Positions 12,178 through 63,307 of a stretch of DNA of 64,000 bases are shown here, piece by piece. The DNA comes from Escherichia phage vB_EcoM_ASO2A, in the sequence record MZ726793.1; one strand, given 5' to 3'. Position numbers and translations under genes: made by a program. Within the stretch, counting starts at the first letter, position 1; the number at the start of each line of letters is the position of its first letter. The notes beneath the pieces were generated by a model that saw only the letters and a program-made list of their open reading frames with translations, was not told the origin of the DNA and made no database searches.

Positions 12178-12633
12178 ATGACTAAAATGAGACATTACGC
12201 TGTAAACTGCAACGATGCTTGGCGTTTGTGTCCTGATGATCCGACAGAAGGCACATTTGTAAGATATGAGGATTATAAAGAGTTATCGGATGCTGTAATC
12301 GCATTGTTAACTGATATCCGTTCACGTTATCCAGGACAAGATTTCACTTGCCCTCACATCAAACTTCTTGCTTGCCTGGTAGAAGGTGAGAAAGAAGTGG
12401 AAGATGGCTTCAAGCGTGTAGAGTATCAAGGTGAAACTTTAGATGTTCCTGAATTTGTTAATTATATTGCAACAGATTCAAGTGGCGAGCGTTATGGTTA
12501 CACTCATAAACCGGAGATTCCAGATTTCGCTTATGCGTGGCGTATTCCTTATGAAGTTTTTAATGTTGCAGATTGCTGGTATTTAGGAGAAGGAAACAAC
12601 CTTAATTGGCGTGATTCCTTGTTTCAGGTTTAA
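12178..12633 (+). CDS. hypothetical protein (151 aa)
   Basis: SD aagggggg. Confidence 0.6.
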   Translation: MTKMRHYAVNCNDAWRLCPDDPTEGTFVRYEDYKELSDAVIALLTDIRSRYPGQDFTCPHIKLLACLVEGEKEVEDGFKRVEYQGETLDVPEFVNYIATDSSGERYGYTHKPEIPDFAYAWRIPYEVFNVADCWYLGEGNNLNWRDSLFQV

Positions 12634-12637
12634 CAAT

Positions 12638-12901
12638 ATGAAAGAGACATTGCCAGCAGCATACCGTTTGAATGATGAACGTATTTGGGAGTGGACCGAC
12701 GTTTCTTGTTTTTACCCTGAAATAGTTCAATATTGGCGAGCAAAAGGGTGTGTTGTAGTTATCAACCCATGTGGACCAGTCGATGAAGATTGCTTGTATC
12801 TCGATGGAAAGTGGCACAGTTATTGTCGCTGGCCTTTTGAGTGGATGTGTAAAGAAGATCTCCCAGAGGGTTGGGAGTATCCAAAAGCAAATAGGAGATA
12901 A
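12638..12901 (+). CDS. hypothetical protein (87 aa)
   Basis: ATG 12638; weak SD. Confidence 0.45.
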   Translation: MKETLPAAYRLNDERIWEWTDVSCFYPEIVQYWRAKGCVVVINPCGPVDEDCLYLDGKWHSYCRWPFEWMCKEDLPEGWEYPKANRR

Positions 12902-54641: not shown

Positions 54642-55046
54642 TTATTGAAGTTTAAGTGAACCACGAAGACGTTTCTCTTGCTGATCACGAATATATTGTG
54701 GAACCTCGTGAATTGAATCATTACCGTGCCTATTTTCAACAACTAAAGAGATAACTTGATAACCAAACTCTTCAGCAAGAGTTAGATAAGGTTTAAGTTC
54801 TTTCTCTGTGGTTGAAGTGTTAGAAACAATAATCTTGTTAAGATTAGATGCCATAGCATCACGAACAATACTCTGACACCATGCGTGTGCTTTACCTACG
54901 TTTTCTGGCTTCCAATCGTAAACACCACTTTCTGTGTAATGATATTGATCTGCCTCACAGATAGGCCAATAACCTTCAGAAATAATTTCTGCTACTGTAG
55001 ATTTACCAGCACCTGAAACGCCACGTAAAATGATAAGTTGTTTCAT
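54642..55046 (-). CDS. P-loop polynucleotide 5'-kinase-like protein (T4 Pnk kinase-domain-like, 134 aa)
   Basis: LILRGVSGAGKST, EADQYH, IIVSNTSTTEKELKPYLTLAEEFGYQV parallels T4 Pnk [45 protein letters not shown]. Confidence 0.6.
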   Translation of the reverse strand: MKQLIILRGVSGAGKSTVAEIISEGYWPICEADQYHYTESGVYDWKPENVGKAHAWCQSIVRDAMASNLNKIIVSNTSTTEKELKPYLTLAEEFGYQVISLVVENRHGNDSIHEVPQYIRDQQEKRLRGSLKLQ

Positions 55047-55979
55047 TTATCCTCCAAAGAAGTTTTCGATTTTTTCACGTCGCTCCTGCTGATTTAAAGC
55101 AGCCCATTGAGTCTTCGTAAAATTATTTCGAATCCATTCTAACAAAGCGTAATATTCTTCGTCAACAATTTGTTTGGCATTTTTTGGATTATCCCAAATC
55201 AGATCCCACTTTTTATCTCCACCACGCATAAGAAACTTCTTAGTAAGATAGTGTGGTGATTTAATTTTTAAAAGTAAGTTGAACGGATAGTTTGTTTCAC
55301 GAACTACAAATCCTTCGTGTTTACAATGTTTAGACATTTCAACAACATCTGAAAACTTAACCATTGGATGAACTTCAGGACGCTTAAATTTGGTGACAGA
55401 AGCAATTCCATCAAGAGCACCTTCAGGTAACATAAAACTTGTCCCATCAGGATTTTGAATTCTGGCACCAATTAAGTATGCACCTGGTTCTTCTTCGACA
55501 ATATGCGGATCAGAAGGATCACAGATTTCAAAAAGGAAAGTTGCTTTTGCACTCTCTATCCATTTGATGAAATGTTCTATGTCATCACACTCTGAAATAA
55601 TATGATTCTTTGCAATACTTGCAAAATCTGATTCAAGGCTTCCTGTTGTCGATACAATAAGTTGACCTTTATATACACCTACAGAGGCCATAAAACCATT
55701 TACTTTACGAACCACATCTACAAATTCATCCGCTGGTAGATCTGTGCCATTCTCAAAACGATTAAAAATCTTAGTGAAAGGCCAAATAACAACATTGTCA
55801 TCATCGTCAACAACGATTCCGCGACATTCTAGAAGACGAGAATCAATGTTCCACAGGTTATCCCAGAAAACTTTGTTCTTATACTTAAGAACAGATAGAC
55901 CAGAATACTCTCCTTCTTTATATGTTTTCTTATGAACTAAACCTTTTTCAACCAAATCGTCGCAATTAAATTTAGCCAC
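55047..55979 (-). CDS. Rnl1-type RNA ligase (310 aa)
   Basis: LECRGIVV and PFTKIFNRFE parallel T4 Rnl1 LECRGIMF/PMEKFFNLNE; RKVNGFM as the nucleotidyl-lysine motif; GTG start after aaggagag. Confidence 0.7.
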   Translation of the reverse strand: MAKFNCDDLVEKGLVHKKTYKEGEYSGLSVLKYKNKVFWDNLWNIDSRLLECRGIVVDDDDNVVIWPFTKIFNRFENGTDLPADEFVDVVRKVNGFMASVGVYKGQLIVSTTGSLESDFASIAKNHIISECDDIEHFIKWIESAKATFLFEICDPSDPHIVEEEPGAYLIGARIQNPDGTSFMLPEGALDGIASVTKFKRPEVHPMVKFSDVVEMSKHCKHEGFVVRETNYPFNLLLKIKSPHYLTKKFLMRGGDKKWDLIWDNPKNAKQIVDEEYYALLEWIRNNFTKTQWAALNQQERREKIENFFGG

Positions 55980-55980
55980 A

Positions 55981-56532
55981 TTACTCTCCTTTGATTATTT
56001 TGTGATGGTCTACAGTTACGATATCTCGTTTACTCATCATAGAAATTATCTCATCAAAATGTAAGATTTTTCCGTGTGCATCCCAACCCACATCTAACAT
56101 TTTACCATAAGCTTCATCAGGGAAAGATCCGTGGGAATGCCCGTGTAGCATGATTGATCCACGACCTTGCTTATTCCAGGAGGCCATAGGGTAATGGCTT
56201 AAGACGAAGAACAGCTTCTGATATTTCACTTCGTCATAATACACCACTTCTCCATACTCTGCAAGCACTTCTCGGTGTTTGCTGTAATCATGGTTCCCAA
56301 CACAATAAGTGATATCCCCTTGGAGGCGGGAAGCAATCTTACGGGTATCTTCTTCAGTCCCGAAACAGAAGTCACCCAAATGCCACATCTTGACACCTGG
56401 ACTCGTAGCGCATTTATTCCATGCTTCGATCAGTGCTTCTGTCATGTGGTCCATATCTTCCCACGGTCGATATTCAGGAGCAAACTCTCGTATACGTTTG
56501 TGCATAAAATGCAAATCACTTGTAATAAACAT
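55981..56532 (-). CDS. calcineurin-type metallophosphoesterase (183 aa)
   Basis: SDLHFMH, LGDF, VGNHD, LHGHSHG. Confidence 0.8.
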   Translation of the reverse strand: MFITSDLHFMHKRIREFAPEYRPWEDMDHMTEALIEAWNKCATSPGVKMWHLGDFCFGTEEDTRKIASRLQGDITYCVGNHDYSKHREVLAEYGEVVYYDEVKYQKLFFVLSHYPMASWNKQGRGSIMLHGHSHGSFPDEAYGKMLDVGWDAHGKILHFDEIISMMSKRDIVTVDHHKIIKGE

Positions 56533-61156: not shown

Positions 61157-61231
61157 GGCCCTGTAGCTCAATGGGAGAGCTGTCGGCTCATAACCGATAG
61201 GTAGCTGGATCGAAACCAGCCAGGGCCACCA
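61157..61231 (+). tRNA. tRNA-Met (CAT), CCA encoded
   Basis: acceptor GGCCCTG/CAGGGCC, anticodon loop CTCATAA, T arm GCTGG-ATCGAAA-CCAGC. Confidence 0.85.
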
Positions 61232-61233
61232 AC

Positions 61234-61308
61234 GTCTTTATGGTGTAATGGATAGCACAGGAGTCTTCTAAACTCTTAGTCAAGGTTCGATTCCTTGTAA
61301 AGACACCA
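61234..61308 (+). tRNA. tRNA-Arg (TCT), CCA encoded
   Basis: acceptor GTCTTTA/TAAAGAC, loop CTTCTAA, T arm CAAGG-TTCGATT-CCTTG. Confidence 0.85.
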
Positions 61309-61309
61309 G

Positions 61310-61492
61310 AACATTTTAACATGAATTAGCTCAAGTGATTTGAACCCACTACTGATCATGGTGGCAGAGAATGAGGCAAGTATGTCAGACATTATAAACA
61401 AAGGCCACGGTTATATTAGAAGACATAAATGCTCGAAGAGCACCGTTCGTGGAGAACGGGGTTGGTGGAGTCACCATTCATGGTAAAATGTT
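61310..61492 (+). ncRNA. about 180-nt structured non-tRNA RNA
   Basis: 17-nt closing stem AACATTTTAACATGAAT (61310-61326) / ATTCATGGTAAAATGTT (61476-61492), 16 of 17 paired; internal hairpin CCGTTCgtggaGAACGG. Confidence 0.45.
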
Positions 61493-61503
61493 TTAAAAAA
61501 CTA

Positions 61504-61533
61504 TTGACAACTAACATTATTTTATGTTAGATT
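61504..61533 (+). promoter_or_regulatory. tRNA-operon promoter P2
   Basis: aaaaCTATTGACAA, 18 nt, TGtTAGATT; inverted repeat CTAACAT/ATGTTAG at 61511-61530. Confidence 0.6.
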
Positions 61534-61541
61534 ATAAGTAT

Positions 61542-61632
61542 GGAAGGGCAAATCGACGTGGCGACGAAAACGGTCTTGAAAACCGCCGAGCTTGAAAGAG
61601 CCTTGGGAGTTCGACTCTCCCTCCTTCCGCCA
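61542..61632 (+). tRNA. tRNA-Ser (TGA), type II
   Basis: acceptor GGAAGGG/TCCTTCC, G73, loop CTTGAAA, long variable arm GCTTgaaaGAGC, T arm GGGAG-TTCGACT-CTCCC; D arm atypical in my hand fold. Confidence 0.75.
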
Positions 61633-61637
61633 GATTA

Positions 61638-61723
61638 GGTAGATTGGTGAAATGGTAGCCACGACAGTTTGCTAAACTGTAGTCGGAAACGGCGTGTAGG
61701 TTCGAGTCCTACATCTACCGCCA
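61638..61723 (+). tRNA. tRNA-Ser (GCT), type II
   Basis: acceptor GGTAGAT/ATCTACC, G73, loop TTGCTAA, variable arm GTCGgaaaCGGC. Confidence 0.85.
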
Positions 61724-61853
61724 AGTTCTTTTTAATATAGCTTACTTTAGCAGAGTAAATCTTCGGCAAGTGGCGGTAACCACTTTACCGATAACTCATA
61801 GTTAGTGGTGTGAACACTGGCTATTTTAAAAAGAATTTAAATATTAGTATTTA

Positions 61854-61941
61854 GGTGAGTTAATTCCGTAGGGGTAGCGGGGCAGACTGTAAATCTGTTA
61901 TCATTGCGATTCGGGTGGTTCGACTCCATCACTCACCACCA
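61854..61941 (+). tRNA. tRNA-Tyr (GTA), type II
   Basis: acceptor GGTGAGT/ACTCACC, A73, GCAGA-CTGTAAA-TCTGT as in E. coli tRNA-Tyr; D-arm junction atypical. Confidence 0.8.
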
Positions 61942-61947
61942 AATTAA

Positions 61948-62033
61948 GATGAGTTGGCTGAATGGTTTAAGCGGCGGACTGTTAATCCGTGTTCGAAAGA
62001 ACGATATAGGTTCAAATCCTATACTCATCGCCA
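61948..62033 (+). tRNA. type II (long variable arm) tRNA with GTT (Asn) anticodon and G73
   Basis: acceptor GATGAGT/ACTCATC, D stem GCT/AGC, GCGGA-CTGTTAA-TCCGT, variable arm GTTCgaaaGAAC+gat, T arm ATAGG-TTCAAAT-CCTAT. Confidence 0.6.
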
Positions 62034-62040
62034 GAATTAT

Positions 62041-62117
62041 GGACTTGTAGAGTTAAGGTAAACCCCCAGTCGCCAAGAGGCTTCTGGAATTGCAGGTATC
62101 GAATCCTGCCGAGTCCC
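62041..62117 (+). ncRNA. tRNA-like element without an anticodon loop
   Basis: acceptor GGACTTG/CGAGTCC, D arm with GG, T arm GCAGG..CCTGC (8-nt loop). The anticodon arm is replaced by CCAGtcGCCaagaGGCttCTGG. No CCA. Confidence 0.35.
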
Positions 62118-62123
62118 AGCTTT

Positions 62124-62198
62124 GCTCCTATAGTATAATGGCTATTACAACGGTTTTGTAATCCGTGGATCTCTGTTCGATTCAGAGTGGGAGCACCA
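62124..62198 (+). tRNA. tRNA-Thr (TGT)
   Basis: acceptor GCTCCTA/TGGGAGC, loop TTTGTAA, T arm CTCTG-TTCGATT-CAGAG. Confidence 0.8.
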
Positions 62199-62473
62199 AC
62201 ACAACATTAAGGGCACTGTGATTGATCGTCGTATCCTGTGCACAAGGTCTGTTCGAAAGACAGTGTTCTTAGTATTGTGTTGATCACACAAAAAGAGTTA
62301 CCTGAAACTTGACCGGAGTAGGGTTGGATGGGGCAAAAGAAGAAGCGGCTCTCCCATCGACAGCAACGAAGAATAATATTTGACTTTGGTTTTGTATTAT
62401 TTTAAGTTAGCTTACCGAACGTAGGGCTAGTCACCCAACGGGATACTCGTCACTGTCCCACTCAATAAAACTA

Positions 62474-62503
62474 TTGACAACCAATAGTAAAATGTAGTAT
62501 AGT
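62474..62503 (+). promoter_or_regulatory. tRNA-operon promoter P3
   Basis: aaaaCTATTGACAA, 18 nt, TATAGT 62498-62503. Confidence 0.6.
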
Positions 62504-62524
62504 AAAGATGTAGGGCGTTCTTGG

Positions 62525-62598
62525 TGTAGCGGTAGCATTCCGTCCTTCCAAGTCGGCGGCACGAGTTCGATCCTCGTAGAACGCTCCAAATTATTTAA
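62525..62598 (+). tRNA. tRNA-Gly (TCC)
   Basis: acceptor GCGTTCT/AGAACGC, loop CTTCCAA, T arm ACGAG-TTCGATC-CTCGT. Confidence 0.8.
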
Positions 62599-62678
62599 TA
62601 AAGGGTTGCCAGAAAACTTTCTCTTTTACTCATGGTTTTCTCCTTCTCTCACACCTCTTCTGGTTGCCCTTCATTAAA
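62594..62678 (+). ncRNA. long hairpin RNA with a 43-nt pyrimidine-rich loop
   Basis: arms TTTAATAAAGGGTTGCCAGAA / TTCTGGTTGCCCTTCATTAAA (about 18 of 21 paired); the loop contains TCTCCTTCTCTCACACCTC. Confidence 0.45.
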
Positions 62679-62686
62679 TGATTTAT

Positions 62687-62762
62687 TGGTTTGTAGTGTA
62701 GTCCGGTAGCACACGACACTTTGACTGTCGTAGGTTTGGTTCAAATCCAGACAGACCAGCCA
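62687..62762 (+). tRNA. tRNA-Gln (TTG)
   Basis: U1-A72 acceptor TGGTTTG/CAGACCA, G73, loop CTTTGAC. Confidence 0.8.
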
Positions 62763-62855
62763 TATAACAAAGGTGAGTCACTACCTCAAGTGTGAAGTTA
62801 AAAACGAGGAGCCGCCGAACACTTTCTTTTGCGGTGTACCTTTAGAATGTTATGA

Positions 62856-62932
62856 CGGAATTTAGCTCAGTTTGGTAGAGTGTACGCTTTGGGAGCGTAT
62901 TGTCGCAGGTTCGAATCCTGCAATTCCGACCA
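62856..62932 (+). tRNA. tRNA-Pro (TGG)
   Basis: acceptor CGGAATT/AATTCCG, loop TTTGGGA, T arm GCAGG-TTCGAAT-CCTGC. Confidence 0.85.
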
Positions 62933-62938
62933 ATTAAA

Positions 62939-63012
62939 TGTTTCGTAGTTCAATGGTAGAACCCACGACTGATAATCGTGAGATACAAGTTCGATTCTTG
63001 TCGAAACAACCA
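62939..63012 (+). tRNA. tRNA-Ile (GAT)
   Basis: acceptor TGTTTCG/CGAAACA, loop CTGATAA, T arm ACAAG-TTCGATT-CTTGT. Confidence 0.8.
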
Positions 63013-63014
63013 GT

Positions 63015-63084
63015 TTCCCGTTAGACTTACAGGATAAGAGTTCCACAATTTATTGTGACGCTGGTTCGAATCCAGCACGGGATA
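63015..63084 (+). ncRNA. tRNA-like element without an anticodon loop
   Basis: acceptor tTCCCGT/ACGGGAt and T arm GCTGG-TTCGAAT-CCAGC are intact. The anticodon arm is CACAA-ttta-TTGTG (4-nt loop). No CCA. Confidence 0.35.
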
Positions 63085-63090
63085 CATAAT

Positions 63091-63169
63091 AGCGGGATAG
63101 AGGAGTCTGGTCGTCCTCGCCAGTTTCATATGCTGGAGATCATTGGTTCAAATCCAATTCCCGCCTCCA
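63091..63169 (+). tRNA. tRNA with CAT anticodon (Met, or Ile2 if lysidine-modified), 1:72 mismatch
   Basis: acceptor aGCGGGA/TCCCGCc, loop TTCATAT, T arm ATTGG-TTCAAAT-CCAAT, CCA encoded. Confidence 0.75.
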
Positions 63170-63284: not shown

Positions 63285-63307
63285 AGCCTCCTTATTGGAG
63301 GCTTTTT
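63285..63307 (+). terminator. Rho-independent terminator closing the tRNA operon
   Basis: AGCCTCCttatTGGAGGCT + ttttt. Confidence 0.75.

Follow-up and report, generated by a model that had tools for sequence, protein, structure and literature searches.

We identified a gene for an asparagine transfer RNA (tRNA-Asn) with a long, hairpin-forming variable arm in Escherichia phage vB_EcoM_ASO2A (sequence record MZ726793.1), of which one stretch of 64,000 nucleotides (nt), here called the window, was analysed. The gene occupies positions 61948–62033 of the plus strand, is 86 nt long, and specifies the anticodon GUU, the discriminator base G73, and an encoded CCA end. Judged by its sequence and predicted fold, it is almost certainly a working tRNA-Asn. 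In bacteria, the long variable arm is confined to Ser, Leu, Tyr, and Sec tRNAs; this rule, correctly stated by a first-pass annotation that was made from the letters of the window, is broken by the phage tRNA-Asn. As far as comparison with other tRNAs can tell, we conclude that it is an Asn tRNA with an added arm and not a Ser tRNA body with an altered anticodon. Its architecture is a variant on a known kind of tRNA and marks out a family that is widespread in phages and tRNA arrays. The label tRNA-Asn was known before from GenBank, while the long-arm architecture and the family are apparently undescribed in the searchable literature.

The gene (GAUGAGUUGGCUGAAUGGUUUAAGCGGCGGACUGUUAAUCCGUGUUCGAAAGAACGAUAUAGGUUCAAAUCCUAUACUCAUCGCCA) was delimited by ARAGORN, Rfam, minimum-energy folding, and identity to a gene of phage phAPEC8. 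ARAGORN called the plus strand of 61948–62033 as tRNA-Asn(gtt) of 86 nt. The Rfam tRNA model (RF00005) matched it over model positions 1–71 with 62.0 bits against a gathering score of 29 and placed a 12-nt insertion in the variable region; the gene thus belongs to the Rfam tRNA family by score and by the alignment of all four arms, and the model fold gave no other anticodon and no sign of a pseudogene. The unconstrained minimum-energy fold computed with ViennaRNA has the same five helices as the ARAGORN drawing. All three methods agree with the long-variable-arm tRNA with GUU and G73 that the first-pass annotation had proposed, and its hand fold was right in every detail, from the stems and arms to the GUUC-GAAA-GAAC hairpin. 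On the plus strand, the acceptor stem (ARAGORN and minimum-energy folds) consists of 7 bp between GAUGAGU at 61948–61954 and ACUCAUC at 62023–62029, with G1-C72, A2-U71, and U3-A70 as its outer pairs. The D arm at 61957–61972, drawn from the same folds, has a 3-bp stem (GCU/AGC) and a 10-nt loop with G18 and G19. It is followed by G26 and the anticodon arm GCGGA-CUGUUAA-UCCGU at 61973–61990 (ARAGORN fold and comparison with E. coli tRNA-Asn), in which the anticodon GUU, decoding AAC and AAU, lies at 61981–61983 (sequence and ARAGORN). The variable region of 15 nt at 61991–62005, which is backed by ARAGORN, minimum-energy folds, covariation, and shuffles of 73 relatives, is made up of the stem strand GUUC (61991–61994), the loop GAAA (61995–61998), the stem strand GAAC (61999–62002), and an unpaired GAU (62003–62005). 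The T arm AUAGG-UUCAAAU-CCUAU, with a 5-bp stem, spans 62006–62022 (Rfam and ARAGORN fold), and the discriminator G73 at 62030 and the encoded CCA complete the gene at 62030–62033 (sequence and ARAGORN fold). Eleven tRNAs scored above the Rfam threshold in the whole window, all within 61157–63166, and only this one has GUU, in line with the earlier remark that the window holds no other tRNA-Asn. The codons AAC and AAU together account for 51 per 1000 codons in the 73 non-overlapping open reading frames (ORFs) of the window, which has a G+C content of 38.7%; usage in E. coli is about 39 per 1000.

The host tRNA-Asn is encoded by four chromosomal genes in E. coli, and 5,425 of the 5,426 genomes of this species carry its 76-nt sequence, with a median of four copies. 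It has GUU, G73, and CCA in common with the window tRNA, and the 18 nt from G26 to U43, including the G27-U43 wobble pair and the run U36-A-A-U-C-C41, are identical in both. The bodies differ: the host tRNA has a 5-nt variable loop, U1-A72, and a 4-bp D stem in 76 nt, whereas the phage tRNA has a hairpin-forming variable region of 15 nt, G1-C72, and a 3-bp D stem in 86 nt. The window tRNA was found in none of the 5,426 complete E. coli genomes, in each of which BLAST gave one spurious match in yobD. Asn identity in E. coli consists of the three anticodon bases and G73 and can be transplanted into a tRNA-Lys body (Giegé and Eriani, PMC9976931). The first-pass annotation had given the same rule for asparaginyl-tRNA synthetase (AsnRS), together with the indifference of seryl-tRNA synthetase (SerRS) to the anticodon, and both statements match the published identity rules (PMC9976931). 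Both G34-U35-U36 and G73 are present in the window tRNA, and in place of the short variable loop (4–5 nt) of ordinary tRNA-Asn it has 15 nt with a 4-bp hairpin. The pair U1-A72, which marks bacterial tRNA-Asn, is a determinant for GatCAB in hosts using the indirect pathway, and lies outside the AsnRS identity set of E. coli (PMC9976931), is G1-C72 in the window tRNA and is kept in 17 of 40 parsed members of its family. We infer that the extra arm leaves the identity of the window tRNA-Asn unchanged, assuming that AsnRS is compatible with the arm. Host AsnRS would charge the tRNA via G34-U35-U36 and G73, the charged tRNA would read AAC and AAU in this 39% G+C phage, and the gene thus probably encodes a functional Asn elongator.

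The tRNA cluster of the window is 100% identical to that of Escherichia phage MRostami-2023b and 97–99.8% identical to those of phAPEC8-like phages (Phapecoctavirus, Stephanstirmvirinae). The tRNA-Asn gene itself is 100% identical to the annotated tRNA-Asn gene G377_gt005 of phAPEC8 and is 97.7–100% conserved among the phAPEC8-like phages listed. Identical or orthologous genes in phAPEC8 (G377_gt005), phi92 (PHI92_gt008), and their relatives already carry the label tRNA-Asn in GenBank; the phAPEC8 and phi92 records state the isotype only and leave the unusual architecture unremarked. A BLAST search with the 86 nt against 50,697 phage records matched 293 records, 211 of them with at least 80% query coverage, and its nearest non-identical relatives, annotated as tRNA-Asn, come from four groups of enterobacterial phages, the Stephanstirmvirinae, Vequintavirinae, Demerecviridae, and Straboviridae. 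The gene, treated as a local oddity at first pass, is therefore one member of a widespread phage and tRNA-array family. Representatives were fetched from Justusliebigvirus (phi92), Vequintavirinae (KpS8, pEa_SNUABM_56), Demerecviridae (S113, PR1, Proteus phage 1), and Straboviridae (CHI14), with which we grouped vB_Ecl_id4496, a phage of T4-like layout whose record has no lower taxonomy. Every fetched representative encodes a tRNA of 83–86 nt with GUU, G73, CCA, and a variable-region hairpin, the stem of which occurs in the compensatory versions GUUC/GAAC, GAAC/GUUC, GAGC/GCUC, AUCC/GGAU, and GUCA/UGAC. In an alignment of 18 diverse homologues, changes on both sides were found at all four pairs of the extra stem, and none of 500 shuffles reached the observed covariation. 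Over the whole structure, 97.9% of the cells of this alignment are paired, compared with 33–46% when the partners are slid. The pairing of the extra stem is not due to chance. The window tRNA-Asn also scored 93.7 bits on a covariance model (R1) that is over-general and matched 714 tRNAs; the alignment derived from it (A4) mixes isotypes and was not used for pair counts, for which we relied on the 18-sequence alignment and on hairpin statistics.

A pattern scan of IMG/VR (GGACTGTTAATCC, 16–26 nt, GGTTC), which requires a host-like anticodon arm, gave at least 120 loci with a long-arm tRNA-Asn(GUU). Local ARAGORN runs on the IMG/VR loci listed and on sequences fetched later yielded about 80 distinct GUU tRNAs of 79–91 nt, with 73 distinct variable regions of 11–19 nt (mode 15). 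A hairpin of at least 3 bp can form in 86% of these 73 regions compared with 58% of their shuffles, and one of at least 4 bp in 45% compared with 15%. GNRA and UUCG tetraloops prevail among their loops (mostly GAAA, n = 27, then GUAA, GCAA, and UUCG). The modal geometry is that of the window tRNA (no unpaired nucleotide, 4 bp, a 4-nt loop, and 3 unpaired nucleotides), and the geometry is uniform (0–1 nt, 3–4 bp, a stable tetraloop, 3–4 nt) despite very different acceptor and D-arm backgrounds. G73 is present in 34 of 40 parsed members. We delimit the family by GUU, G73, a variable region of 11–19 nt with a 3–4-bp tetraloop hairpin and 3–4 unpaired nucleotides on its 3′ side, and location in a phage or tRNA-array cluster; the window tRNA-Asn, in its cluster of 11 tRNAs, shows all of these features. 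The best homologue outside the long-arm set is the normal-sized, 76-nt tRNA-Asn of Proteus phage PM2, which is 95% identical over nt 5–46, has the same D arm as the window tRNA, and has much of its acceptor stem in common with long-arm members. The short gene of PM2 and the long gene of Serratia phage CHI14 differ essentially by a 10-nt insertion or deletion of the hairpin.

Phages and mobile elements, and not the core genomes of cells, are the carriers of the long-arm tRNA-Asn family. When 185,579 species (one genome each) were scanned with the pattern given above, only 65 places matched, about 22 of which are real long-arm tRNA-Asn genes. Roughly half of these cellular examples lie in dense tRNA arrays or phage-like tRNA clusters, among them arrays of Micromonospora and Verrucosispora with 32–36 tRNAs per 8 kb; the others are isolated calls, most of them from short contigs in metagenome bins. 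In a second scan of IMG/VR the spacing was left free, and the loci listed from it form a sample in arbitrary order that holds only tRNAs with a host-like anticodon arm. Here, a tRNA was taken as long-armed by a variable region of at least 14 nt or by its total length, as a limit of 10 nt admits parsing artefacts, for example in tRNA-Cys. Among the loci listed, 14 of 109 tRNA-Asn genes were long and 95 short (13% long), and inside tRNA clusters 11 of 55 were long and 44 short (20% long). In the other normally short-armed isotypes, a real long arm was found in about 2% among the loci listed, with 3 of 41 for Thr(UGU), 0 of about 100 for Lys, and 2 of 48 for Asp.

Other departures from the usual arm lengths were seen in the same material. 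Phage contigs occasionally encode a long variable hairpin, for example in tRNA-Thr(UGU) (loci L023, L109, L217), tRNA-Cys(GCA) (L015, L060–L063), tRNA-Trp(CCA) (L008), tRNA-His (L287), tRNA-Met, and tRNA-Glu. A tRNA-Ile(UAU) of 91–96 nt with an insertion of 20–28 nt and a recurring CAGAUUAG / CAGAUAAU motif was found at IMG/VR loci such as L027, L030, L032, L034, L066, L209, L220, and L261. Armless tRNA-Leu genes of 74–77 nt with A73 and a Leu-type D arm occur, for example, in Salmonella phage S113 (L003, 213–289), in many IMG/VR loci, and in bacterial tRNA arrays (L134, L135), and the arm is almost never lost in tRNA-Ser (2/107) or tRNA-Tyr (2/64). The chromosomal arrays of Verrucosispora and Micromonospora (L135, L136, L145, L186), with 23–36 tRNA genes within 8 kb, combine a long-arm tRNA-Asn of 89–90 nt with short-armed tRNA-Leu, as in phages.

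A possible function of the arm lies in defence against tRNA-cutting nucleases. The PARIS nuclease AriB cuts tRNA-Asn(GUU) between nt 40 and 41 and also reads features beyond the anticodon arm, including the D loop; some viral tRNAs have been suggested to be competitive inhibitors of AriB, and PARIS is neutralised by the tRNA-Lys, tRNA-Thr, and tRNA-Asn of phage T5 together (Belukhina et al. 2025, PMC12409363). In the window tRNA-Asn, the cleavage context U36-A-A-U-C-C41 is unchanged and an extra helix begins at nt 44 of the same strand. At the upper end of the anticodon stem, 3 nt 3′ of the 40|41 bond, the arm would give the tRNA a different shape, and the phage copy would escape cleavage or bind the nuclease unproductively, with the anticodon arm that AsnRS needs left intact. 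Because the extra helix starts so close to the cleavage site and because the arm is enriched specifically in Asn, our leading, tentative proposal is that it may protect against anticodon-stem-cutting nucleases such as AriB, as a shield or as a non-productive binder, a possibility we take seriously without calling it probable. The wider proposal that long-arm tRNA-Asn extends the set of Ser, Leu, Tyr, and Sec tRNAs by a phage-specific member whose arm serves counter-defence and possibly evolved several times is rather doubtful.

Two phages with a connection to PARIS were considered in this context. The tRNA-Asn(GUU) of T5 is, like that of the window, phage-encoded within a large tRNA cluster, has G73 and CCA, and is followed by a homologous tRNA-like RNA (annotated as 'rna3' in T5). 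It was ruled out as a long-arm type, as it is normal-sized (78 nt) with a diverged anticodon stem: its anticodon stem and loop (GCAUC-UUGUUAA-GUUGA) differ from the host sequence, whereas in the window tRNA this host sequence is retained and an additional arm is present. The idea of two escape routes, by a long arm or by a mutated anticodon stem, is weakened by the common occurrence of host-like, normal-sized tRNA-Asn in virulent phages. Phage Bas34 encodes a tRNA-Asn yet requires T5 tRNA-Asn to escape PARIS (PMC12409363). Bas34 is Escherichia phage SelmaRatti (MZ501103), and its tRNA-Asn, at 12598–12681 of locus L304, is of the long-arm type with U32 and three mispaired acceptor positions; the record annotates a shifted gene of 77 nt. 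A defective tRNA-Asn could explain why Bas34 needs that of T5. We therefore set Bas34 aside as a natural test of shielding, as it is uninformative with a mispaired acceptor stem in its long-arm tRNA-Asn.

Several points weigh against an Asn elongator with a shielding arm. Class IIb synthetases approach the tRNA from the variable-loop side, as in the yeast AspRS complex. T5, the sole phage with a tRNA-Asn tested against PARIS, has a tRNA of normal size in which the anticodon stem is mutated. A normal-sized tRNA-Asn that is 88–91% identical to that of the host over nt 6–62, a stretch that includes the anticodon arm, is encoded by many virulent phages of Salmonella, Klebsiella, and Erwinia, and the long and short forms interconvert in near-identical backgrounds (PM2, CHI14). 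The variable arm is generally labile in phage tRNAs, since the long arm is lost in 64 of 148 distinct phage tRNA-Leu genes. Finally, the variable region of the tRNA-Ser(GCU) of the window also has 15 nt, in a different register (1 nt, 4 bp, 4 nt, 2 nt compared with 0 nt, 4 bp, 4 nt, 3 nt in tRNA-Asn); because this arm is equally short, arm geometry alone is insufficient to argue against SerRS in this phage, and the acceptor stem carries the argument.

In view of T5, of the host-like normal-sized genes, of the easy gain and loss of the arm, and of arm loss in tRNA-Leu, it is about as likely as shielding that the arm is a tolerated and entrenched structural variant without a specific function on what would still be an Asn elongator, a reading that is likewise conceivable and short of probable. 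As AsnRS reads only the anticodon and G73, the hairpin would be nearly neutral; the clean 10-nt difference between the otherwise near-identical PM2 and CHI14 genes, the lability seen in tRNA-Leu and in the occasional gains in Thr, Cys, Trp, His, Met, and Glu tRNAs, and the commonness of host-like normal-sized genes in virulent enterobacterial phages all fit this reading. It accords less well with the excess of long arms in Asn (13–20% among the loci listed, compared with about 2% overall) and their rarity in Lys and Asp, the two isotypes with the synthetases most closely related to AsnRS, or with a geometry that is uniform over diverse backgrounds and a stem that is preserved by compensatory changes. 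The RNA might alternatively be a decoy and no decoder, with a host-like anticodon arm on an altered body that traps or competes for nucleases and thereby spares the host tRNA-Asn. The host identity of nt 26–43 would suit such a role, as would the suggested competition of viral tRNAs for AriB and the reading of features beyond the anticodon arm by this enzyme (PMC12409363). Against it, the tRNA has kept the AsnRS identity set, CCA, a canonical T loop, and G18 G19, and many family members have kept U1-A72, all of which speaks for a role in translation; we regard a pure decoy as unlikely.

The first-pass annotation had left a genuine Asn tRNA with an aberrant body beside an ambiguous Ser/Asn decoder and a variant shaped to escape or titrate a nuclease. 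The genuine Asn tRNA is favoured by the host-identical anticodon arm, by G73, and by a 5′ half that is 95% identical to a normal-sized phage tRNA-Asn, whereas the ambiguous decoder, in which SerRS would charge the tRNA via the long arm and G73 and insert Ser at AAC and AAU alone or along with Asn, is disfavoured and very unlikely. The nuclease-directed variant is a plausible candidate. Like the bacterial class II tRNAs for Tyr, Ser, and Leu, the window tRNA-Asn has a variable-region stem-loop and a 3-bp D stem; unlike Tyr and Leu it lacks A73, unlike Ser it lacks G2-C71, and it has the anticodon and discriminator of Asn. Charging by SerRS could draw on the long arm, G73, G1-C72, and C11-G24, on a variable region as long as that of the phage's own tRNA-Ser(GCU), and on the fact that SerRS ignores the anticodon (PMC9976931). 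In bacterial tRNA-Ser, however, G1-C72 and G2-C71 are absolutely conserved in most cases (PMC9976931), and phage tRNA-Ser genes from the same contigs keep G1-C72 in 40 of 44 and G2-C71 in 42 of 44. The window tRNA-Asn has G1-C72 followed by A2-U71 and U3-A70 and lacks a Ser anticodon (NGA or GCU), and the 2-71 pair varies across the long-arm family (GC 19, CG 10, AU 6, UA 5), the C2-G71 of ten members being a published antideterminant for SerRS and U1-A72 occurring in the 17 members mentioned above. The arm of the family (3–4 bp, 3–4 nt on the 3′ side) matches that of phage tRNA-Tyr and not that of phage tRNA-Ser (4–7 bp, mostly 1 nt), although the difference is small within the window (4 bp and 3 nt in tRNA-Asn, 4 bp and 2 nt in tRNA-Ser(GCU)). 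A proteome-wide substitution of Ser for Asn by the only tRNA-Asn of the phage would also be costly. Long arms combined with the anticodon of a normally short-armed isotype, as in the window tRNA, are described for bacterial allo-tRNAs (PMC5389517) and, in the abstract of the respective report, for nematode nev-tRNAs (PMC3333845); in both, a Leu- or Ser-type body sets charging and leads to recoding. Allo-tRNAs have 8/4 or 9/3 acceptor/T-stem configurations (PMC5389517), as does tRNA-Sec, whereas the window tRNA-Asn has a 7-bp acceptor stem and a 5-bp T stem without Ser acceptor determinants. Its identity elements match its anticodon, and therefore no recoding is expected.

An origin of the family from a bacterial-type tRNA-Tyr(GUA) by change of A36 to U and of A73 to G would account for an arm geometry equal to that of phage tRNA-Tyr. 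The identity sets for Tyr and Asn are only these two substitutions apart, and TyrRS is blocked by G73 (PMC9976931); tRNA-Tyr lies directly upstream of tRNA-Asn in the window and in phi92, and the acceptor stems of the two window tRNAs have six of seven pairs in common. Such an origin is nonetheless improbable: in 84 same-contig comparisons tRNA-Tyr was the nearest neighbour 6 times against 3.6 expected, which is no enrichment, the anticodon arm is that of host tRNA-Asn, and the normal-sized PM2 gene has the same D arm as long-arm members and largely the same acceptor stem. The window tRNA, with G73 and GUU instead of A73 and GUA, is Tyr-like in its arm geometry alone. Recruitment from a same-contig tRNA-Tyr or tRNA-Ser was rejected, as neither showed nearest-neighbour enrichment over the acceptor stem and T arm. 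That the gene is a pseudogene or a non-functional tRNA-like relic is highly improbable; the mispaired acceptor stem and U32 of its Bas34/SelmaRatti relative and the other tRNA-like relics in the window cluster could be taken in this sense, but the window copy has no mispairs, scores 62 bits against 29, keeps all conserved tertiary nucleotides, and is as strongly conserved among the phAPEC8-like phages listed as reported above.

The long-arm tRNA-Asn adds a further abundant class to the long-arm tRNAs, one that is nearly confined to phages and mobile tRNA arrays. It offers a natural test of whether a class IIb synthetase tolerates an extra arm, and of whether phages can evade tRNA-cutting immunity through changes to the tRNA body instead of mutations in the anticodon loop, the latter being the sole evasion route discussed so far (PMC10264068, PMC12409363). 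PARIS is documented to target host tRNA-Asn(GUU), and mutants without the arm are easy to make, so the shielding idea is directly testable. For annotation, isotype-specific models may flag long-arm tRNA-Asn as inconsistent or as a pseudogene. We found no tRNA-Asn described with a long variable arm in the searchable literature, which covered phage tRNAs, tRNA-cutting defences (PARIS, P2 OLD, retron Eco7, bacterial Schlafen), the Sf14 computational study, allo-tRNAs, and the evolution of tRNA sequence and structure (PMC2474678), as well as the abstracts on nev-tRNAs and of a review of tRNA modifications in viral replication; subscription journals were mostly outside this scope and may hold an earlier description.

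In the window, the tRNA-Asn gene is part of a block of Ser-like, Ser, Tyr, Asn, tRNA-like, and Thr genes downstream of a candidate sigma-70-like promoter at 61504–61533 (plus strand; TTGACA, 18-nt spacer, TAGATT, extended TG), and a terminator-like hairpin followed by a T run lies at the end of the tRNA cluster at 63285–63303 (plus strand); both were picked up by consensus scans only. The tRNA-Tyr(GUA) gene at 61854–61941 (plus strand; Rfam, 39 bits), 6 nt upstream of tRNA-Asn, has a long variable arm and an unusual D arm; it was missed by ARAGORN and is annotated as tRNA-Tyr in phAPEC8. A tRNA-Ser(UGA)-like gene at 61542–61631 (plus strand), which ends in G73-CCA and combines a long arm with an aberrant D region, was detected only as a sub-threshold match to the Rfam tRNA-Sec model (37.4 bits, threshold 47); it is unannotated in phAPEC8, and its counterpart in phi92 is labelled a pseudo tRNA-Ser(TGA). 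The tRNA-like RNA directly 3′ of tRNA-Asn, at 62041–62118 (plus strand; fold z-score −3.05), has an acceptor stem and a T-like arm without a canonical anticodon loop and aligns with the T5 'rna3, putative tRNA-like RNA' and with the corresponding position of phi92.

Three adjacent ORFs on the minus strand (54642–56532), about 5 kb upstream of the tRNA cluster, encode a predicted P-loop kinase (AAA_33) at 54642–55046, an RNA ligase of the T4 Rnl1 family at 55047–55979 (PF09511, 57 bits), and a calcineurin-like metallophosphoesterase at 55981–56532. In composition this cassette looks like a repair system for cleaved tRNAs, which suggests that the lineage has a history of exposure to tRNA-cutting host defences. 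A further unannotated tRNA-like fold lies between tRNA-Ile and the last tRNA-Met at 63016–63087 (plus strand; z-score −3.14); its T arm (GCUGG-UUCGAAU-CCAGC) is canonical, and a stem of 6 bp closes the fold.

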